In this document: piece after piece, positions 1,035 through 62,774 of the stretch
How the letters are laid out: each line of letters opens with the position of its first letter
Position numbering within the stretch: the first letter of the stretch is position 1
DNA from: a virus
Lineage: Duplodnaviria; Caudoviricetes
Direction: 5' to 3' (one strand)
Virus record (IMG/VR): IMGVR_UViG_3300043747_000006
Coordinates: 1 to 63,430 of that record
DNA length: 63,430 nucleotides
Translations under genes and position numbers: made by a program
The notes under the pieces: generated by a model
Databases searched by the model: none
Told to the model about the DNA's origin: nothing
Seen by the model: the letters and a program-made list of their open reading frames with translations, nothing else

Positions 1035-1628
1035 CTAATCAACGTGTTTCCAAAAAACTCGGTTTTTAATGTCATACACCATCACGTCCGATATCCCGTA
1101 TTGTTTTGCGATTTCTTTTACCGGTCTATCGTCGTTTCTAATATCTTTTACATCCCGCTCGGTTATTTTTGCCCTGCCATTTCGGGAACCTTTTGCTTGC
1201 CTGCCTTTACTGATCTTATCTAAGTTATTGTCGTAATGAGTTCCTACTGAAAGATGTTCGGGATTAAAGCATGCAGGATTGTCACATGAATGCAGTATGA
1301 TTAATCCGTCAGGGATTTTACCAACCTCTTTTTCGTATACGGCGCGATGAAGATAAACACTTTTCTTTTTCCTCATTAAACGGATATACCCGTATCGATC
1401 CTTTTTATGACTTACACATTCCCAGCAACCATTCTCGGTAATCACGTATTTTATAGGAGTAAACTGACTTGCATACTTGTTAATTTCGCCATCGAGGTCG
1501 TATATAATCTCACTCAACGATTCGTCATCCTCCTCAATTTGTCGCTTGTTCAGTTCCGCAATCGTGCATAATATCGAAAACTTGTCGCACATCAGGCGGC
1601 GTAGTGTGAATATCATGCGATAGCTCAA
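1035..1628 (-). CDS. HNH homing endonuclease (HNH_3-like) with C-terminal HTH
   Basis: GCW...YG...LHR...HSCDNPACFNPEHL...N motif; true start may lie downstream of 1628. Confidence 0.88.
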   Translation of the reverse strand: MSYRMIFTLRRLMCDKFSILCTIAELNKRQIEEDDESLSEIIYDLDGEINKYASQFTPIKYVITENGCWECVSHKKDRYGYIRLMRKKKSVYLHRAVYEKEVGKIPDGLIILHSCDNPACFNPEHLSVGTHYDNNLDKISKGRQAKGSRNGRAKITERDVKDIRNDDRPVKEIAKQYGISDVMVYDIKNRVFWKHVD

Positions 1629-8246: not shown

Positions 8247-8521
8247 CAGCGCACCACCTTCGCGTGCTCAATTGCGTCAAGGATTTCCTCGGTTCCAACA
8301 AGTCCGACTAGGCGTCCGACTTCTACTCCGTTGCGTTCAAAGACAAGGACTGGCACCGATGATAGTCCGTATTGGTCGATGACTTCCGGATGCTCGCTGA
8401 TGTCGATACTTTCAAGCGTTGCTCCTGCGGTGAATAAGTCGATGTCGCCTAGGTAATTCGCTAAAGCTGCGCATGGACGGCATCCCGGTTTACTAAATTT
8501 CTTGATCGTAATAATCGCCAT
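8246..8521 (-). CDS. Thioredoxin/glutaredoxin-like protein
   Basis: CRPC active site, SVPVLVF; lies near the RNR gene. Confidence 0.9.
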   Translation of the reverse strand: MAIITIKKFSKPGCRPCAALANYLGDIDLFTAGATLESIDISEHPEVIDQYGLSSVPVLVFERNGVEVGRLVGLVGTEEILDAIEHAKVVR

Positions 8522-19615: not shown

Positions 19616-20496
19616 TAAATCGCCTCCCCGTTGCTATCAAAAAATTGCGGATTTTCGTAGCACCAATAGACATGTTCTCGGTAGTCACTAACAGTAACAC
19701 CGTTTACCTCCGCCAGATATTGAATTAAATATTCGAAATTTTGTGTAGATAAGTTAAAGCGTTGTCTATTCGCCTCGAACCATTCAAATATATTTTTATC
19801 GTGCTTTGACAAGTTAAGTTCAGCTTTCAACGGAATAATATTGCCGTATGTTGTTCCGCCATGCCCAATGCTAAGAGGTATTACATGATCCATATGAATG
19901 CCTTCTTTTTCTGAGGTTAATGCGCATGAGTAATTGAAGTGTTTTAGAATTTTTTCGTATTCCTCTGTCGTGAGGTCTGAAATCACTCCTTGCTTTCTCC
20001 CTCGTCTTCGTTGCAACTTAATTTTTGTTAAATTACCTTTATAGTAATGAGGGTTTAACTTTCGCCATTTTCTTTGATACTCATTTACATGCTCTCGATT
20101 ATTCATTGAATACCTTCTTGATGATTCGCGTCTCTTATCTCTGTTAGCTTCCACGTGCGGAGCACTCAATTCTTTTTTACAAGGTATACACGTAGAATGC
20201 CTTCCTCCTAAACCTTTTACACTTTTATAAAAACTCTCAAGTGGTAGCCAATTATTACAATTAGTACAAGACTTTCCTAAAACACCTTTTCTTTCTTCAA
20301 GTGTCGATGACTTGAGCACCTTATCAGTTTTATTTCGTTTCCTCTCCTCCAACCTTTTACAGTCCTTGCAGTTAGGTTTTACACCACCCACACCGTTTTT
20401 ACTTTTATGATATTCCTCTAAGGACTTCCAATGAGTACACTTGCTACAACGTTTTCCTAGTACCCCATTCTCTTCAGTTACTTTTGTTCGTTTCAA
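19615..20496 (-). CDS. HNH endonuclease with two N-terminal Cys4 zinc-finger units (paralog A)
   Basis: HMDHVIPLSIGHGGTTYGNIIPL...N.SK; duplicated KxCxxC...CxxC units. Confidence 0.85.
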   Translation of the reverse strand: MKRTKVTEENGVLGKRCSKCTHWKSLEEYHKSKNGVGGVKPNCKDCKRLEERKRNKTDKVLKSSTLEERKGVLGKSCTNCNNWLPLESFYKSVKGLGGRHSTCIPCKKELSAPHVEANRDKRRESSRRYSMNNREHVNEYQRKWRKLNPHYYKGNLTKIKLQRRRGRKQGVISDLTTEEYEKILKHFNYSCALTSEKEGIHMDHVIPLSIGHGGTTYGNIIPLKAELNLSKHDKNIFEWFEANRQRFNLSTQNFEYLIQYLAEVNGVTVSDYREHVYWCYENPQFFDSNGEAI

Positions 20497-22249: not shown

Positions 22250-23097
22250 TAAATCGCCTCGCTTTCGGTTACTTCGGATGAATAATACGTTTCAGTGTAC
22301 GCCGGTAATGGAAATTGCTGTCCGGTCGCTTCGCGCCATATTTCGATTGAATGACGTTGGTCTGTTTTTATTTCTTCGACGGTTCGCGGATTAGCGAAGC
22401 ACCAATCGTAAAACTCTCTGTACTCTTGAGCGGTTAAAGCGTTTGCCGTCGCTATAAATTCAACCATTCTATTAAACTTATTTACCGATAATTCAAAGCG
22501 TTGCCTATTCGCTTCGAACCATTCGAATATATTTGAGTCGTTTTTTGAAACGTTCAATTCAGCCGATAGCGGTATAATATTTCCGAAAGTAGTTCCTCCG
22601 TGACCTATACTTATAGGTAGTATATGATCCCAATGGATATCACCTACACCACTAATGGAGCAGCAATCCTTGAATTTCGAATTTATCATATTGATTTCTT
22701 CAACAGATAAATTATTTGGTAAAAGTTTTAATTTCGCTCTTCTATTCAGACGTATTACTTTGACAGATTGTTTATTTTTCTTTTTCCACGACCTTTTTCG
22801 TTCTCTTTCCCTTTTTTTATACTCTTCGCTTTTCTCGCTGTACGGGTATTTATGTTGGCATTTTTTAACTACAGCCGACTTCTCGTTCTCTTTCCTTCTT
22901 TTGTAATCACATACTTTGCAATGATATTTTAATCCGTATGATTTATACTTATCCTTGTGGAAGAATTCTAACGCTTTCCACTCACCGCAATCAGTACACT
23001 TCTTCCCGATAACATCTCCACGCTCTTCCAACTCGACTCGCTTCCTAGGTTTCCGAAACTCCTGCGTCTTTTTTGCGCCTTCTTTACTCACAACCAA
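22249..23097 (-). CDS. HNH endonuclease with zinc finger (paralog B)
   Basis: HWDHILPISIGHGGTTFGNIIPL...NIFEWFEANRQRF. Confidence 0.85.
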   Translation of the reverse strand: MVVSKEGAKKTQEFRKPRKRVELEERGDVIGKKCTDCGEWKALEFFHKDKYKSYGLKYHCKVCDYKRRKENEKSAVVKKCQHKYPYSEKSEEYKKRERERKRSWKKKNKQSVKVIRLNRRAKLKLLPNNLSVEEINMINSKFKDCCSISGVGDIHWDHILPISIGHGGTTFGNIIPLSAELNVSKNDSNIFEWFEANRQRFELSVNKFNRMVEFIATANALTAQEYREFYDWCFANPRTVEEIKTDQRHSIEIWREATGQQFPLPAYTETYYSSEVTESEAI

Positions 23098-25871: not shown

Positions 25872-26057
25872 CTAATTTTTAGTCGCGTTACTCATCCGCT
25901 TTATATAACTTTCGTTTATGATCCGCTCAAGCTCTTTCAATACCGGATTACCTTTCGCCAACTCTTCCTCAAAATGTTTCCGCCGCTCTTCCTTTGATAA
26001 CTCCATTAATGGCGAATGAATAATTCCGATTGTATTTCCGAGTCTAAATTCCTTCAC
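25872..26057 (-). CDS. Small protein divergent from integrase; candidate recombination directionality factor
   Basis: AAGGAG RBS plus GTG at 26057; the function call rests on position only. Confidence 0.55.
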   Translation of the reverse strand: MKEFRLGNTIGIIHSPLMELSKEERRKHFEEELAKGNPVLKELERIINESYIKRMSNATKN

Positions 26058-26070
26058 GATAACCACTCCT

Positions 26071-26106
26071 TACTACATAATAAGGACGAGAACACATTTT
26101 CGCGCA
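26071..26106 (-). promoter_or_regulatory. Phage promoter-like motif, copy 4: TGCGCGA-N19-TTATGTAGTA
   Basis: Upstream of the candidate RDF. Confidence 0.7.
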
Positions 26107-26118
26107 GGTCTTTTGCGG

Positions 26119-26148
26119 TTTACATTAGCGTGTATGGACGGGTATAAT
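26119..26148 (+). promoter_or_regulatory. SigmaA promoter of integrase
   Basis: TTTACA-N18-TATAAT. Confidence 0.6.
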
Positions 26149-26166
26149 ACGGTGAGAGGTGATTAA

Positions 26167-27714
26167 ATGAGTCGTCCTAGCGATCTTGATGTTTATTTAT
26201 ATTTACGTAAGAGTCGAAAAGACCTCGAAGAAGAAAAGAAAGCGAGCGAGCACGGAGAGACTTACGATACCTTGGAGCGCCACCGGCGGACCTTGCTTTC
26301 CGTCGCAAAAAAGGAGCGCCACAACATCGTCAATATATATGAAGAAGTCGTATCGGGCGAATCCGTTGCCGAGCGTCCGCGCATTCAAGAGATGCTGCGC
26401 GATATTGATGCCGGTCTTGTTGACGCTGTCCTCGTTATGGACCTCGACCGTCTTGGCCGCGGCGACATGCTCGACCAAGGTATGCTTGACCGCTCCTTTC
26501 GCTACTCTGGAACGAAAATTATCACGCCAACTGAAATATATGATCCGGAATCCGAAACGTGGGAACTGGTTTTCGGTATCAAGTCGCTAGTGGCCCGCGA
26601 AGAACTAAAGGCGATTACACGACGTATGCAACGAGGACGAGTCGCATCAGCCAGCGAAGGCAAATCGATTAGTAAGGTCCCACCGTATGGGTATAAACGT
26701 ACCGATGATTTAATATTGAAGCCGGATACTGAAACCGCATGGGTTGTTAAAAAAATGTTCGAAATGATGCGAGACGGTCATGGGCGCCAGTTCATTGCGC
26801 AAGAGTTAGACCGACTAGAAATTAAGCCGCCGAATCCAAAACGTAAAACTTGGTCGCCGAGCAGCATTACCGCAATAATTAAAAACGAAGCTTATATCGG
26901 AAATATCGTTTGGGGCCAGATAAAATATAAAAAACGGAATGGAAAGTATAAGAAGACGAAAGTTCCCCGCGAAAAGTGGACGATAAAAGAGAACGCCCAC
27001 GATCCGCTAGTATCCCGTGAATTATTCGAAGCCGCCAATAAAGCACATTCCGGACGATGGCGCCCGTCCACCGTTATTAATAAGAAGTTAGCGAATCCTC
27101 TTGCCGGCATTTTGAAGTGCGAAGTGTGCAATTATACTATGATGTACCAACCGCGCACTGACCGCCCGAATGACGTAATAAGGTGCGCTCAGCCGTCATG
27201 TAAAGGCGTGCAAAAAGGAGCCGCGCTAAATCTTGTTGAGCGAAAGGTTATTGAATTGATAGAAGAGTATGCGCTTGATATTGCCGTAACATTAACGCAG
27301 CAGGCTCCGACTTCTAACGAGGACATTCCGTATAAGAAAATACTTGTCGCAAATAAAGAGGAAGAAATGGCGCAATTGGAATCGCAGAAGAGTAACTTGC
27401 ACGATCTACTAGAGCGAGGCGTTTACGATATAGATACGTTTCTTGAACGCCAGCAAAATTTGACCGCTCGTATTGACGGACTGAAGGAGGAAGTTCGGAT
27501 ATTAAACAACGAAATCCAAAAAGACGAAGCAAGGGAAGCCGGAGCTAACGTATTGCTTCCGAGGCTTCAGATGGTTATTGCCGAATACTGGAACGCCGAT
27601 ATCGAGATGCGCAATAAGATGCTTAAGACCATTTTGGAGAAAGCAACATACCTCCGCAAAAAAGAATGGACGAAGCCGGACGAATTCGTCATACAACTTT
27701 ATCCAAAAATATAG
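26167..27714 (+). CDS. Large serine recombinase (integrase)
   Basis: YLRKS catalytic motif, DLDRLGR, PPYGY, zinc ribbon CEVC...C...C, coiled coil. Confidence 0.96.
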   Translation: MSRPSDLDVYLYLRKSRKDLEEEKKASEHGETYDTLERHRRTLLSVAKKERHNIVNIYEEVVSGESVAERPRIQEMLRDIDAGLVDAVLVMDLDRLGRGDMLDQGMLDRSFRYSGTKIITPTEIYDPESETWELVFGIKSLVAREELKAITRRMQRGRVASASEGKSISKVPPYGYKRTDDLILKPDTETAWVVKKMFEMMRDGHGRQFIAQELDRLEIKPPNPKRKTWSPSSITAIIKNEAYIGNIVWGQIKYKKRNGKYKKTKVPREKWTIKENAHDPLVSRELFEAANKAHSGRWRPSTVINKKLANPLAGILKCEVCNYTMMYQPRTDRPNDVIRCAQPSCKGVQKGAALNLVERKVIELIEEYALDIAVTLTQQAPTSNEDIPYKKILVANKEEEMAQLESQKSNLHDLLERGVYDIDTFLERQQNLTARIDGLKEEVRILNNEIQKDEAREAGANVLLPRLQMVIAEYWNADIEMRNKMLKTILEKATYLRKKEWTKPDEFVIQLYPKI

Positions 27715-27736
27715 AAGGCTAAGCGCCTTCTTTTTC
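27713..27736 (+). terminator. Integrase terminator
   Basis: AGAAGGC-TAAGC-GCCTTCT followed by a T run. Confidence 0.75.
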
Positions 27737-27865
27737 TTTGCGGAAAAACGTCATTAATGCATTGATGATATCCGCCTTTTCCTTTAATATATAGTAGCGA
27801 AACCGCTCGTTATCGATGTTTCCTAGCCCGCTAAAGAGTGTAGAGGGTCTACGGTTGTATTGATT
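27719..27865 (-). other. Start-less replacement 3' end (48 codons) of a host yhbH-like (DUF444) sporulation gene
   Basis: Translates [48 protein letters not shown], resembling the YhbH C-terminus as recalled. Confidence 0.75.
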
Positions 27866-27885
27866 TAACTGCTAACCTTATACCC
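27845..27885. other. attP site
   Basis: Imperfect inverted repeat GGGTCTACGGTT-N17-AACCTTATACCC (10/12) centred where the yhbH-like frame begins, next to the integrase. Confidence 0.75.
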
Positions 27886-30238
27886 GTAATTCTGCACTAA
27901 CTGGCGCCGGCAACCGCGTAATAAAGCGCCCATAACCGTCCTTACACTTAATTAAATTCATCGAATGGTAACGAGGCAGTCTGAGTAAATCTTCTTCAAC
28001 AAACGGATGCAATTCGCTTTTCAGTTCCTTATAATTCTCTTTGTCGCAACCGCTAATCAGCATATAGCTCGCGTTAGCCGACCGCAGTTCCTCGCGAATG
28101 TGCTTAATTTGATTTAAATAATGGCAGCTAATTATCGGCTTCATTCCGAATTTGGCCATGCGCGAAAGCCTCTGCCGCAATAATTGCTCCGTATTCTCCA
28201 CTTGGTAAAGTTCGTCGATAATAAGGTTTACTTTGCGTTGTTTATTGCGAACAGGTATTAATTCACTTCGGACCTGAAGCGCCAGGTAAATCTTCGTCAT
28301 CCAGTACGTCGTGTAAATGTCGCGCTCATTGTCCGTTGAGAACATCGTTTCGGGCATCTTTATGCAGATAAGTTGATTGCGTTGGAGCTCCTCGACCAAG
28401 TTAACGTTTTTCGACGTATCTTTCTTCAGCATCATTTCGATATACGGATTATCCTTCAGTTTATTTAAACGGCTGATAATACCTTCGACTAGGTGCAGTT
28501 TTGTGCCACGTAAATTGCCGTCCTTATCGTGCTCGTCGAGCTCTTGCATATAGCCCATGTACTCCTCCATATTTTCGTATTGATCGGCCGGCACCTTCCG
28601 CAGATAATTAATCCGTAGCATATGTTGCTGAAGGACGCCGAAAACGTCTCGGATGGGCCCGCCGCTTAAGAATACGACTAGCGCCGCGCTTGTTAAATAG
28701 CGATTCATCCGCGAAGATAATGCAGTATCATCCGAGTTAATCGAGTTGACCAATGTCGTAAGTTGTGTCGTTTGCTTTTTGGCGCTCACATAACGAGTAA
28801 AGGTATCGTCGCTTGGCGGAATCTCGTTATAGCCGAGCCCTTGTAACGTTTCGAAATCGTGGCATTCGATATTCAGCACTTGGTCAGGCGGAAACAATGC
28901 CGCCACCTCTTCGCTCAGCTCGCAGTTTTTAATGTAATCGAACATCACCACGCATTCGCCGACCTTGATAGCGTCGCGGCTTAGGTTGCCGATAAGCGTC
29001 GATTTGCCCGCCCGAGTTGGCCCGATTAATACTAGCGTCAATTGCTTGTATTCTTTATCCGTCGACAAGAACGCCGGCTGCTTGGCGCCTCTATACGTGC
29101 TCTCTCCGATACACATCGTTCCGGCCCGCAGATCCTCCGGAACTTCCGTCTCCTGCGTCTCCACCTTTTCGATAAAGTTGTAGCGTTCGAGAATGTCCCG
29201 CCCGGCAATCGCAATAAAGTTCTGCGCCTCTAAGTCGCCTATTTTATTAACTTCCGCACCAGCCACCGAATAATCCGTAAACTTGAACGGCTTCTTTAAA
29301 GGCTTCGGAGCCAGCCGATTGTCCTCCGTGACCACCTCGAAACTTTGCGTCAAGCTCCGAGCATTATTCCGCTGCCGCAGCCGGTCCTTGCTTTCGCTCA
29401 TCACGATAATTTGCGTATTGGAGATGGAGGCGGCCGCCTTTTTTCGCGTGGCATCGCTTATTTTATTGCCTCCGTTTAAGCGCTCCACAAGCGCCTCTAA
29501 GCCGTTGTATTCGTTCCCCTTCCGCTTACCTTCCGAGCCGTTAAAGGCGTCTCCTAGGTCGTCAAATAACGCCGAAATCACGCCTATAATCGTTTTAAAT
29601 GCGTAGGATGCTCCGAACTTGTTTCGGTCAGTCGGCAGGCCACGTTTAACCTTGCGAATAGTGGCTTCGTAGCTCGCTCGCCAGCTAAATTGCGAGGTCG
29701 GCATGAAGTTATAAAATACGCCAATCTTGTCGCCTTCCTCCATGACGTCAACCACGTTTAGTTTCGAGCGCAAGAGGTCATCGTTACGGCGATCAGTCGC
29801 CAGGCCTAGCGCATCCTCTTTCGTATAGGCTAACGTATACATAGTTGCTGACTCGCTGAATTCCGGAAGCGAGGCGACCTCCTTAACGGTGATATTCGTC
29901 CACGAGTCCGAAATCTTTTCCTTGATAAGCGACAGGTAATTGCGCGGGATGATGAAGTAAAACTCGACCTTTTTCTTTTCGATGTAGACGTAATAGGCGA
30001 CCTTGGAGGCGAGCTCGACGGAGTATTTAGTGCCGAAGAGGAATTCGCGCCCGAGCGCCTTTATAACTTTTGCGTTTTCCTTTCGGATGTTCTGCGTGAC
30101 GTTGCGATAAATGGAAGCGATGGATTTGGCGATTTTATGCGTGGATTGGTTGCGGATAGAGTTGTTAGGAGTTAATCGAAGGAATACATATGACGGTTTG
30201 ACAACGTTGATATAGTCGGAAAGCTTAATGCGTTTCAT
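27878..30238 (-). CDS. VirD4/TraD/HerA-FtsK-superfamily ATPase (coupling-protein-like)
   Basis: Walker A GPTRAGKST, Walker B LIIDELYQ, LSRMAKFG..PIISCHYLNQI motif. Confidence 0.75.
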   Translation of the reverse strand: MKRIKLSDYINVVKPSYVFLRLTPNNSIRNQSTHKIAKSIASIYRNVTQNIRKENAKVIKALGREFLFGTKYSVELASKVAYYVYIEKKKVEFYFIIPRNYLSLIKEKISDSWTNITVKEVASLPEFSESATMYTLAYTKEDALGLATDRRNDDLLRSKLNVVDVMEEGDKIGVFYNFMPTSQFSWRASYEATIRKVKRGLPTDRNKFGASYAFKTIIGVISALFDDLGDAFNGSEGKRKGNEYNGLEALVERLNGGNKISDATRKKAAASISNTQIIVMSESKDRLRQRNNARSLTQSFEVVTEDNRLAPKPLKKPFKFTDYSVAGAEVNKIGDLEAQNFIAIAGRDILERYNFIEKVETQETEVPEDLRAGTMCIGESTYRGAKQPAFLSTDKEYKQLTLVLIGPTRAGKSTLIGNLSRDAIKVGECVVMFDYIKNCELSEEVAALFPPDQVLNIECHDFETLQGLGYNEIPPSDDTFTRYVSAKKQTTQLTTLVNSINSDDTALSSRMNRYLTSAALVVFLSGGPIRDVFGVLQQHMLRINYLRKVPADQYENMEEYMGYMQELDEHDKDGNLRGTKLHLVEGIISRLNKLKDNPYIEMMLKKDTSKNVNLVEELQRNQLICIKMPETMFSTDNERDIYTTYWMTKIYLALQVRSELIPVRNKQRKVNLIIDELYQVENTEQLLRQRLSRMAKFGMKPIISCHYLNQIKHIREELRSANASYMLISGCDKENYKELKSELHPFVEEDLLRLPRYHSMNLIKCKDGYGRFITRLPAPVSAELRV

Positions 30239-30239
30239 C

Positions 30240-30881
30240 TTAATACACCCCGAACAAGAATTTGATTAAAATATTCGCGACGAGTAGCACGCCGGTCCAG
30301 CGACCGCCATCTTTCCATCCGGCCACCTTCAGAATTATCATGACGGCCGACCCGATTAGCGTCCCCGCGAGCAATAAGTCCTTTAATGCATCGCAGATTC
30401 CGAGCAATATTTCGAGCATCATTTCGGAAGCCTTGTCGCGTGTATTATCGGCGCTCCATTGAATAACGTGGCCCAACAGCCCGAGATTTGGGTTGTCGCC
30501 GCTAATATTCGCCAATTTATCGGCATACGGCGTCGGGTCAATCACGGAGCCGCTCGCGTCCTTCATTCCGAAATGCAGATGCGGGCCGGTGCTGTTGCCG
30601 GTGTTTCCGCTGAATCCGAGAAACTCGCCGGCGTGTATTTTGTCGCCGATGTGCGATTTGACCTCGCTCATATGGCCGTATATGGTACGTGTGCCGTCCG
30701 GCATTTGAACGCTTAATCCCTTACCTATTGCGCCGGATCCGTCATATACCCGGTCTACTACTCCGTCAACTACCGAGCGAAGTTTAGTGCCTTCGGGCAT
30801 GGCGAAATCGATGCCGGAATGTGGCTTGAAGTCGCGGACTGGCGAGAGTTCTCCGAATTTACCTGTTAAGCGAAATTTCAT
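30240..30881 (-). CDS. M23/LytM metallopeptidase with C-terminal TM helices
   Basis: HSGIDF, YGHM, GNTGNSTGPHLHF; hydrophobic C-terminus. Confidence 0.9.
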   Translation of the reverse strand: MKFRLTGKFGELSPVRDFKPHSGIDFAMPEGTKLRSVVDGVVDRVYDGSGAIGKGLSVQMPDGTRTIYGHMSEVKSHIGDKIHAGEFLGFSGNTGNSTGPHLHFGMKDASGSVIDPTPYADKLANISGDNPNLGLLGHVIQWSADNTRDKASEMMLEILLGICDALKDLLLAGTLIGSAVMIILKVAGWKDGGRWTGVLLVANILIKFLFGVY

Positions 30882-31306
30882 TACAATCCCTCCGCAGATC
30901 CTGACGTTGGTGTTGTGATTCCGTTAAACAAAGCGTCGACTTGGTCCATCGCCCATGGCAATCCGAGCAAGAAAATATAGACGATTAGATATGAAAGGAA
31001 TCCTTTTTTAGCTCCGTCAAAGTCTCCGTCTGTCATACGCTTAATCGTGTCAAATCCGCCTTTGAAAATAATTACCCATTTACCGAGACTTAGTAATTTC
31101 GCGTATAGTTTCTGAGCTCCGACGTCGATTCCGGTACTTGCGAAAGCATAATCGAGGCCACCGCCCGCTACTAAAATAACCGATGTAGCTCCGACAACTT
31201 TGTAAACTAATCCGTACTTCTTAAAATGGCGCTCAACTTTTGCGCTAAACGGCTCCTTCTCTTTTCCGTGCAAAAATTCGTTAATGGACATACTTTCCGT
31301 CCTCAT
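30881..31306 (-). CDS. VirB2/TrbC pilin-like membrane protein
   Basis: Hydrophobic segment ending AFA, then two TM helices (KWVIIFKGG; YLIVYIFLLGLPW). Confidence 0.55.
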   Translation of the reverse strand: MRTESMSINEFLHGKEKEPFSAKVERHFKKYGLVYKVVGATSVILVAGGGLDYAFASTGIDVGAQKLYAKLLSLGKWVIIFKGGFDTIKRMTDGDFDGAKKGFLSYLIVYIFLLGLPWAMDQVDALFNGITTPTSGSAEGL

Positions 31307-46339: not shown

Positions 46340-46774
46340 TTACATTTTGATTTTGTCTAATAGATCATAGCCGCTAAAAGTAAACGGAAGTGCTTCCTCA
46401 ACAATTGAGCCGACTTCGAATTTACTTAACGGAATTTGGTCGAACTGAACGCCTTTAAACATTATTCGTTCTGCGCCCCATGCTTCAGGGTCATCAAGTT
46501 TTGAAATAAGAGATGTTACGTATGGTTTTCCTCTATCACTTGCGACACTACCGATGAGCTGAATAAAATCGGAAGTAATTTTATACCCGGTCATTGTCCC
46601 GCTACCTTTTAGTGTCATTTGTTTATGGCCGACCCAGCGCGTGCCGGACCGCTTGATTTCTTCTTTGTCGATATCGACAGTTGCTTCGAAATTTGTAATA
46701 TTTGTCTGCCACACACCGTCGCGCCAAACTTCGCCATAGCTTCCGTTAATTGTGCGAGTTGCATCTAATGCCAT
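46340..46774 (-). CDS. Tail tube protein (XkdM-like)
   Basis: INGSYGEVW.DG, KLDDP...GAER, EE.LPFTF. Confidence 0.92.
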   Translation of the reverse strand: MALDATRTINGSYGEVWRDGVWQTNITNFEATVDIDKEEIKRSGTRWVGHKQMTLKGSGTMTGYKITSDFIQLIGSVASDRGKPYVTSLISKLDDPEAWGAERIMFKGVQFDQIPLSKFEVGSIVEEALPFTFSGYDLLDKIKM

Positions 46775-59399: not shown

Positions 59400-60140
59400 T
59401 TAAGCCGAGGTCGTTTGCGGATTGTCATGGCACCAATATACGTATTGACGGTATTCTTCGACTGTCATATCGTTAGCCTTGCCGAGCCATTCGATAAGAA
59501 GGTCGAACTTTTCTTGCTCCAGATTGAACCGTTGCCTATTCGCCTCAAACCATTCGAATATATTTTTATCGCATTTAGACTGATTTAAATCGCCACAAAG
59601 CGGAATCATATTGCCGTACGTTGTTCCGCCATGCCCAACGGCTATTGGTATGACGTGGTCCCAGTGAATATCGCCTACGTCGCCGGTTAAAGCGCATCCT
59701 CCGAAAAACTCAAGTGTAACATTCTTTTGTTCAACATCGAAATCGGCGGCCAGCGCTAACCTCCGTGCCCTACGACGTTGCATAATTAACCCGGTTTTTT
59801 CGGGATTATTTTGTCGCCATAACCGTTGAGTCTTCGCCATATGCTCCTTATTATTTTCGTAGTGCAACCGGAGTCGCTCGACTTCTTTTTCTCGATTTTC
59901 CGCTCTCCACTTACAGATTAATTCCGTATAATGATCTTTATGTTCTTCGCGGTAGGCAGCGCAACATGCCCTACATTTCGAACTTCTTCCGCCTAGATTT
60001 CTTTTATTCTTCGGAAAATCATCGAGGTGTTTGATCCTTTCACACTCTCCGCAAACTTTCGCAACCATCTCGCCTACAGCGCTTTCGTAATAAACGGTCC
60101 CTGCTTTATTCTTTTTCTCCGCCAACCCTTCAATATTCAT
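59400..60140 (-). CDS. HNH endonuclease with zinc finger (paralog C)
   Basis: HWDHVIPIAVGHGGTTYGNMIPL...NIFEWFEANRQRF. Confidence 0.85.
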   Translation of the reverse strand: MNIEGLAEKKNKAGTVYYESAVGEMVAKVCGECERIKHLDDFPKNKRNLGGRSSKCRACCAAYREEHKDHYTELICKWRAENREKEVERLRLHYENNKEHMAKTQRLWRQNNPEKTGLIMQRRRARRLALAADFDVEQKNVTLEFFGGCALTGDVGDIHWDHVIPIAVGHGGTTYGNMIPLCGDLNQSKCDKNIFEWFEANRQRFNLEQEKFDLLIEWLGKANDMTVEEYRQYVYWCHDNPQTTSA

Positions 60141-62388: not shown

Positions 62389-62774
62389 TATTTCTCTCCC
62401 CCTATCCGGTATCCTTCATCATTCCGCGACCAGAACCAATAAACTTCCGAAATTGCCCCGATCGCATTGTCAACGTGGTAGCTGACGACGTCCTGGCCGA
62501 TGCCCATCAACTTGCCCGCCTCTTCCTGCGTCAGGTCCTCTTCGTATACCAATCGGAGAGCTTCCGCCTGGCGTTCGGTTAGGTTGGCGAGCTCGAGCGC
62601 TTTGTATAAATCGATTAAAATTACCGTACTATCGTAATCTCCGGCATACTGTCGAGAGAGCAGCGCGTGATAATCGGATAATAAAATGCGTAGGTTTGCC
62701 GGACAATCCAACGCCGGGTACTTTTCTTCGAGACTGCGCTCGTTTACGTGTAGATCACGTTTTACACTTCCGAT
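62388..62774 (-). CDS. Sigma70 region-4 HTH protein, probable ATC start
   Basis: LTERQAEALRLVYEEDLTQEEAGKLMGI; AGGAGG 8 nt upstream of an in-frame ATC at 62774. Confidence 0.8.
   Translation of the reverse strand: MGSVKRDLHVNERSLEEKYPALDCPANLRILLSDYHALLSRQYAGDYDSTVILIDLYKALELANLTERQAEALRLVYEEDLTQEEAGKLMGIGQDVVSYHVDNAIGAISEVYWFWSRNDEGYRIGGEK

Follow-up and report, generated by a model that had tools for sequence, protein, structure and literature searches.

A temperate soil phage, whose whole 63,430-nt record (IMGVR_UViG_3300043747_000006) is the window analyzed here, probably integrates at the N-Q-Y-N codons of the host sporulation gene yhbH and keeps that gene full-length by means of a diverged 3′ terminal segment, or tail, of its own. 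According to the proposed mechanism, the integrase of this phage of Neobacillus-like Bacillaceae would recombine an attP of about 49 bp with an attB located in conserved yhbH codons, with the CA of the Gln codon as the place of strand exchange. To the right of this crossover, the phage DNA is a diverged copy, in frame, of the last ~45 yhbH codons and ends in a hairpin. As the phage tail abuts the crossover in frame, integration would yield a full-length chimeric yhbH that consists of host residues 1 to ~341 and the phage tail and is convergent with int. The native 3′ end would be displaced by ~63 kb to a position beside the phage ATPase gene, without a promoter or start codon. The last β-strand and C-terminal helix of the von Willebrand A (vWA) domain of YhbH would come from the phage tail, so that the gene could stay functional in the lysogen without excision.

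The tail frame is found between the integrase gene on the plus strand and the gene for a 786-aa ATPase on the minus strand (Table 1). Two stop codons are situated just upstream and no in-frame ATG, GTG or TTG precedes the 48 residues; the start-less minus-strand peptide described in the original prediction was reproduced exactly. The sole NCBIfam match of the peptide is to TIGR02877 (spore_yhbH) at profile positions 331/335–371 of 371. This match (E = 0.006–0.011) is far below the full-length cut-off, as expected of a 48-aa piece. The 48-aa peptide alone gives no match to Pfam DUF444, and a DUF444 profile search of the window also gave no match, as expected for a fragment. A Pfam MOZ_SAS match to the peptide (E = 0.051) was discarded as chance. 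BLASTP alignment with Bacillaceae YhbH proteins, the comparison by which the assignment to yhbH was to be judged, shows 26 of 45 residues identical to the native tail of Neobacillus niacini (58%, E = 3e-18). The identity is higher, 39 of 48 residues (81%), with positions 340–387 of the 390-aa YhbH of a Neobacillus sp. DY30 lysogen, which is a chimeric protein. An RHSTLM-type tail is present in 29 of 30 uninterrupted single-copy yhbH genes and the 30th is cut at a contig end; therefore the STLF-type tail is the mobile one. The native YhbH ending given in the original prediction matches the same 29 genes.

Table 1. Positions of sequence features in the window.
Feature	Position	Strand	Basis or remark
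Start-less yhbH 3′ end, 48 codons plus stop (NQYN + 44 residues)	27719–27865	−	
attP, imperfect dyad of ~49 bp with two ~24-nt half-sites	27838–27886	−	11 related attP sites aligned
Predicted central (crossover) dinucleotide, CA of the Gln codon CAA in N-Q-Y-N	27861–27862	−	
Large serine integrase, 515 aa	26167–27714	+	Pfam, PHROG
P-loop ATPase, 786 aa	27878–30238	−	PHROG 5156, 4.9e-90; weak TrwB_AAD_bind match
Terminator-like hairpin, T-runs on both strands	27713–27731	both	7-pair stem (4 G-C), pattern match only
Three endonuclease VII/HNH-type genes	19618–20496, 22252–23097, 59403–60140		
Further HNH endonuclease	1038–1628		
Phage sigma-factor-like gene	62391–62711		
Transcriptional regulator, 405 aa	14672–15886		PHROG 1728

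The integrase displays Pfam Resolvase (6.7e-20) and Recombinase (1.6e-24) domains as well as a Zn_ribbon_recom match (0.012) that lies below its cut-off, and the protein is assigned to PHROG 95, integrase (2.3e-102). The two domains together with the weak zinc ribbon identify it as a large serine integrase. Homologues of the ATPase adjoin the displaced native tail in three related lysogens (G001, G002 and G003), and the ATPase gene of the window would adjoin attR after integration. The left arm of attP overlaps the last two codons and the stop codon of the ATPase gene. This overlap is particular to this phage, since the ATPase genes of G003 and of the viral loci L038–L040 end 320–420 nt from the att site. 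The TAG stop codon of the tail (27721–27719) sits in the loop of the terminator-like hairpin, which would end the integrase transcript and, once the phage is integrated, presumably the chimeric yhbH transcript as well.

The window is rated 100% complete. Head, portal, terminase, sheath, baseplate and tape-measure genes were found with PHROG, and lysis (endolysin), DNA polymerase, primase, helicase and ribonucleotide reductase functions are also encoded. The complete record and the full tailed-phage gene set identify the window as the unintegrated form of a genuine tailed temperate phage. It is collinear with a prophage of N. niacini (G003), where 35,799 of the 63,430 bases align at 70–91% identity. 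Window positions 27894–63234 correspond to contig positions 8292–43470, and window positions 58–27461 to contig positions 46536–75338. The order is permuted exactly between 27461 and 27894; the G003 prophage is therefore the window opened at that location.

A blastn search with window positions 26000–30300 against 50,697 deposited phage genomes gave no match. A lysogen of exactly this phage did not turn up; the nearest integrase is 78% identical, and sequence comparison suggests that this particular phage would integrate at the yhbH NQYN codons as well. In the soil-metagenome assembly X1, two contigs overlap exactly on positions 27836–27865, which represents an assembly-graph branch at the att core. 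The contigs of four soil-metagenome runs, among them perhaps the one that yielded the window, display no host junction, and this is neutral as to an integrated form of the phage.

In the comparison of window positions 27881–30238 with the N. niacini prophage (L020 in G003), the C-terminal half of the ATPase has a 95% protein identity to that of the prophage. The integrase is only 72% identical to that of the same prophage and the tail type differs. These sequence comparisons point to a genome that is mosaic at the att module, with Neobacillus as the likely host. In the block that adjoins attP (27878–31306), the ATPase is accompanied by a small membrane protein and by an M23 metallopeptidase that has a membrane segment at its C-terminus. 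Four endonuclease genes are scattered among the replication and packaging genes and are probably homing endonucleases. The sigma-factor-like gene and the PHROG 1728 regulator possibly take part in lysis-lysogeny or late-gene control.

The original prediction described a 12-bp imperfect inverted repeat centred at 27865. The symmetry is present, but its size and centre had to be revised: the dyad is ~49 bp long and centred at 27861/27862, i.e. 3–4 nt away, with outer limits that were drawn from conservation, and the 12-bp repeat is a part of it. A search for repeats around the site yielded only the terminator and two AT-rich palindromes, and neither the 12-bp repeat nor the long dyad. The family consensus of the attP half-site, read outward from the centre, is ATa.AActgTtaAC.cTATACAC and reaches 23 nt; the right arm is formed by the first 8 codons of the tail. 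Dyad symmetry is displayed at 16 of 32 positions in the window and at 18–27 of 32 in ten related attP sites, with 27 of 32 in L049. Only 0.2% of window positions reach the symmetry score of attP.

The crossover was mapped in related elements and then placed on the window. The sequence common to attL and attR is 17, 16 and 14 bp long in G001, G002 and G003, respectively. In G004, the bases directly before and directly after CA differ between the attL, the attR and an attP-like copy, and G078 and G092 confirm the 5′ bound of the crossover. The CA is also the dyad centre in 11 unintegrated attP sites. On the window the crossover falls at 27862–27861, within the interval of 27855–27875 where it had been expected. 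The att arms are clearly either of the host type or of the element type: attL and attR are hybrid sites, and attP and attB display little identity beyond the crossover. The attP-like copy in G004 (L019), which has the left arm and the short tail, is located ~435 bp before attR, with identical sequence upstream of both. This direct duplication may be a trace of a tandem or abortive integration.

A scan of one genome per prokaryote species revealed 12 integrase relatives, 11 of which are 50–75% identical to the integrase of the window and are found in Neobacillus, Bacillus and Anaerobacillus. The twelfth (L012, 27% identity, in a Saccharibacteria MAG) was dropped as a relative. The YhbH profile search covered the genomes of ten of the 11 relatives, that of L002 being left out. 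All ten genomes contain a full or near-full YhbH match and a separate fragment that spans only profile positions ~325–371. This fragment is the displaced native C-terminal end, and it is found 28–73 kb away or on another contig; the distances on the same contig are 62 kb in G001, 72.5 kb in G002, 67.7 kb in G003, 34 kb in G004 and 28 kb in G007. The yhbH 5′ part is joined to element DNA in all ten lysogens, which bears out the proposed insertion at the N-Q-Y-N codons. The elements at these codons have related serine integrases (50–78% identity).

At attL the sequence reads ..GYGEVNQYN(R) from the host, followed by the element tail. At attR an element arm (V*R*RL or V*G*HL; the arm of the window is V*G*QL) is followed by the native tail. 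Mapping of the two junctions in related lysogens, which had been proposed as a check, places them at NQYN with the displaced native tail elsewhere. In eight of the ten lysogens the frame is completed by the YhbH-like tail of the element, so that restoration of the gene by a diverged tail of phage origin, and with it a chimeric YhbH, is found in eight of ten lysogens examined. The frames of the long-tail lysogens are complete (388–413 aa) and match TIGR02877 positions 1–371 above the cut-off. Several of the chimeric proteins with diverged tails are named “sporulation protein YhbH” by NCBI. In three cases (L005, L006 and L011) the chimeric yhbH is directly followed by the integrase gene in convergent orientation, as the layout of the window predicts. 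PrkA is encoded upstream of yhbH in L006.

Several genomes show additional arrangements at this locus. Three contigs of G009 (C38, C5 and C59, with L028, L032 and L035) end or begin exactly within NQY(N). One has the 5′ part of yhbH, another a native tail and the third a tail of the element type, as is expected if integrated and excised forms are mixed. Two native-type orphan tails are present in G010 (L031 and L034, 1.8 kb apart) and in G142 (L111 and L115, 6.6 kb apart), which suggests successive insertions or remnants of earlier elements. With a gap of only 2.6–5.8 kb between the complete yhbH and the orphan, the elements in G078 (L086/L093), G103 (L098/L104) and G180 (L122/L127) must be either decayed or very small; moreover, frameshifts break the yhbH of G180 into three pieces.

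The long YhbH-like tail is found in G001, G002 and G005–G010. The other two lysogens have a short unrelated tail, which ends in NQYNRKPYTQEKAVSMTA and a stop codon in G003 and in NQYNCTPYTQSKTVDTIKFQRF and a stop codon in G004. The viral collection contains 17 loci, 13 of them with an intact attP. Seven free attP loci (L037, L038, L039, L040, L044, L050 and L052; five different sequences) have the long tail and all of these frames are open; six (L042, L043, L045, L046, L047 and L049) have the short tail. As for the other viral loci, L048 is the attL of the G004 prophage, and L041, L051 and L053 end at or before the integrase stop codon. The short tails thus known from two of ten lysogens and six of 13 free attP sites are 2–17 aa long, are unrelated to YhbH and truncate it. 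When mapped on a tree of 27 integrase rows, 23 of them different, the long/short label requires 4 changes, at least 3 of which are forced by well-supported branches; for L003 and L007–L009, where the integrase gene is away from the chimeric gene, the label was assigned by genome only. Close relatives persist without the tail, and therefore the tail is dispensable for the element.

In the taxonomic family of G001, YhbH is found in 265 of 269 genomes and at least two matches are found in 32 of these. A separate C-terminal fragment is present in 20 of the 25 genomes checked among those 32, hence in at least 20 of 269 genomes. The 20 carriers comprise five from the initial lysogen set and 15 of 20 further genomes, seven of the 32 being outside the check. 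The multi-match genomes without a fragment have paralogues (G051, G052 and G063), a frameshift (G036) or a split near profile position 212 (G021). Further diverged long tails are found in G092, G094, G096, G104 and G261, native-like tails in G078, G099, G101, G103, G212, G232 and G180, and further short tails in G044 and G142 and, by profile coverage only, in G046. Diverged tails are also displayed by 12 of the best 120 YhbH cluster representatives. About 12 of 120 YhbH representatives in the database are unrecognised host-phage chimeras.

The split yhbH of G021 (L119 and L121) is broken near profile position 210–214 and its halves are 44 kb apart. It represents a second, mid-gene insertion site that truly breaks yhbH. 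Five other genomes (G022, G048, G055, G106 and G173) fall in the same band of best E-values as G021 (~1e-91 to 1e-97), by score only.

The tails of the elements were compared by a pN/pS test over the 31 codons that separate the att arm from the FF motif, with 17 diverged element tails that form 136 pairs; these pairs share ancestry and are phylogenetically non-independent. In the YhbH frame, pN is 0.305 and pS is 0.837, which gives a pN/pS of 0.36 (codon-bootstrap 95% CI 0.27–0.48) with 0 stop codons; given the saturation of pS, the true ratio would if anything be smaller. Frame +1 has a pN of 0.425, a pS of 0.342, a pN/pS of 1.24 (0.96–1.67) and 33 stop codons. The corresponding values for frame +2 are 0.422, 0.327, 1.29 (0.98–1.82) and 65 stop codons. 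No length change is found in the YhbH frame among the 17 tails. For comparison, pN/pS is 0.10 in the displaced native tails and 0.23 in the clade of the window itself. The low ratio, which is specific to one frame, together with the lack of stops argues that the tail evolves as a coding sequence, though it would be translatable only after integration, and under a looser constraint than the native tail of the host. The seven native-like tails were excluded from the test because in these an element-borne copy is told only by an arm beside the orphan; the orphan of G212 has no arm, and the two copies in G232 are 1 Mb apart.

An AlphaFold2 model was made of the chimeric YhbH of G001 (390 aa, 77-sequence alignment), whose tail is 81% identical to that of the window. 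The mean pLDDT is 78.6 and values of 94–95 are reached over residues 351–380, a confidence that partly reflects homology since the alignment is dominated by native tails. The NQYN residues are at positions 340–343. The tail displays a helix at 348–353, a strand at 361–366 and a second helix at 371–379. Residues 208–383 match vWA domains (9doc_A, Z 18.2, rmsd 2.2 Å over 159 residues), and nearly all of the top vWA matches align through residue ~383. The tail is thus predicted to be the last strand and the C-terminal helix of a vWA domain. Residues D219, S221, S223, T278 and D309 are invariant in YhbH and presumably constitute a MIDAS motif. No relative of known structure was found when the PDB was searched by sequence with YhbH. 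On this model the short-tail elements would remove the last vWA strand and helix, and inactivation of YhbH would be expected.

The tail could also be a decaying relic of captured host DNA, with an inactive chimera and a native yhbH that is rebuilt by excision in the mother cell, in the manner of SPbeta/spsM and skin/sigK. This is distinctly unlikely. Sister elements with a short tail truncate YhbH yet persist, the constraint on element tails is weaker than that on native tails (0.36 vs. 0.10), and the G009 contigs that end exactly at NQY could mean that integrated and excised cells are mixed. In addition, a preprint (10.1101/2021.11.22.469490) credits Abe 2013 (Mol Microbiol) with yhbH as a frequent integration target of phages and transposons. 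Decay, however, would have brought stop codons and indels, and the long-type free attP loci are open in seven of seven cases. Despite a saturated pS of ~0.84, all 17 diverged tails keep both frame and length; the hydrophobic pattern F.(Y/S)Y(I/V)L..K.D....(L/M)..FF is likewise kept in 17 of 17, whereas the other two frames behave neutrally. The pN/pS of 0.36 in frame and the structural model suggest instead that the chimeric YhbH would work.

Constraint at the DNA level only, on an integrase-binding arm and a terminator with an incidental open frame between them, is very unlikely to account for the tail. The first ~8 codons do form the attP right arm, where TCTACAC (codons S-T-L) mirrors the left-arm motif, and the last codons overlap the terminator hairpin, but the frame-specific signal came from the 31 codons that lie beyond the arm and before the FF motif. 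Furthermore, dyad conservation ends ~24 nt from the centre and the peptide aligns with native YhbH over its whole length. It is hardly credible that the frame is part of a phage gene, either as an extension of the ATPase by read-through or as a small gene of its own. The ATPase open reading frame and the tail are in one frame with only TAA-GGT-TAG-CAG-TTA between them, yet two of these codons are stops and a start codon is lacking. In relatives, the ATPase gene ends 320–420 nt away and the tail is still present, and in lysogens the tail is fused to yhbH and not to the ATPase.

Integration at yhbH with a phage tail that keeps the gene full-length is the preferred reading; in its essentials the original prediction holds. 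A bolder proposal, which is rather unlikely, is that the att-linked tail acts as a swappable cassette that tunes or disables the PrkA-YhbH sporulation/stress pathway of the host. Elements of one integrase lineage carry STLF, SSLQ and native-like tail families in addition to the truncating form, with repeated switching, and a swappable cassette may therefore be in play. In vWA and integrin I domains the C-terminal helix, which the tail would replace in YhbH together with the final strand, is coupled to the metal site. If true, the cassette would amount to lysogenic conversion written into the attachment site.

The icd gene of E. coli is the site of integration of both element e14 and phage 21, and the tyrosine recombinase employed by e14 depends on identical sequence at the crossover. 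The insertion of e14 lies within the 3′ part of icd; the gene runs on into the element and takes a homologous C-terminal end from it (PMC13626634, citing Hill et al. 1989). The native end of icd survives as the orphan pseudogene icdC at the far junction and the enzyme stays active; the replacement end is described as differing from the native one by only two residues (PMC13626634). The likeness to the present elements is close, as an in-frame homologous 3′ end abuts the crossover and the native end is orphaned at the other junction (10 of 10 related lysogens). Unlike e14, a large serine integrase is used here and attL and attR share only 14–17 bp. The tail differs from the native one by ~42% and is one residue longer, a sporulation gene of the mother cell is the target, and there are sister elements without the tail. 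The closest precedent is thus e14 in icd, and the phage is a serine-integrase, sporulation-gene version of that principle. Beyond this principle, restoring and truncating att modules alternate family-wide, and there is a sizeable hidden population of chimeric YhbH proteins.

In B. subtilis, SPbeta in spsM and skin in sigK are inserted by the serine integrases SprA and SpoIVCA, and the split gene is described as rebuilt only by RDF-driven excision in the mother cell (PMC4191935, PMC5499854, PMC6957869). Host group, integrase class and a mother-cell sporulation target are shared with the present elements. The contrast drawn with these two systems in the original prediction is fair for this phage: long-tail lysogens keep a complete frame, and the broken frame that characterizes skin and SPbeta is not found in the long-tail class. 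The short-tail relatives (G003, G004, G044 and G142) are nearer to skin and SPbeta, with a broken frame in G003 and G004.

A literature search, with coverage mostly outside subscription journals, found no description of a phage-borne YhbH C-terminus. SCCmec (rlmH/orfX), Bxb1 (groEL1) and A118 (comK) also have serine recombinases and an attB inside a coding sequence. SCCmec keeps the rlmH frame through its last few codons and replaces only a handful of them; Bxb1 and A118 disrupt their targets. To our knowledge none of the three carries a diverged structural segment of ~45 codons of the target protein.

Serine integrases recombine attP and attB without homology between the two, and therefore the host-like tail of 45 codons is kept beside the crossover for its effect on the lysogen rather than as a requirement of recombination. 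The element represents a clean natural case of a phage that pays to keep a host gene whole. Truncating and restoring versions within one integrase family are matched natural pairs for the role of YhbH in sporulation. YhbH is a poorly understood partner of PrkA, and these pairs bear on when a phage gains by sparing or by breaking it. A separate YhbH C-terminal fragment in a genome is a mark of such an insertion. The attB is located in near-invariant codons, so it could serve as a broad-host integration site for engineering of Bacillaceae.
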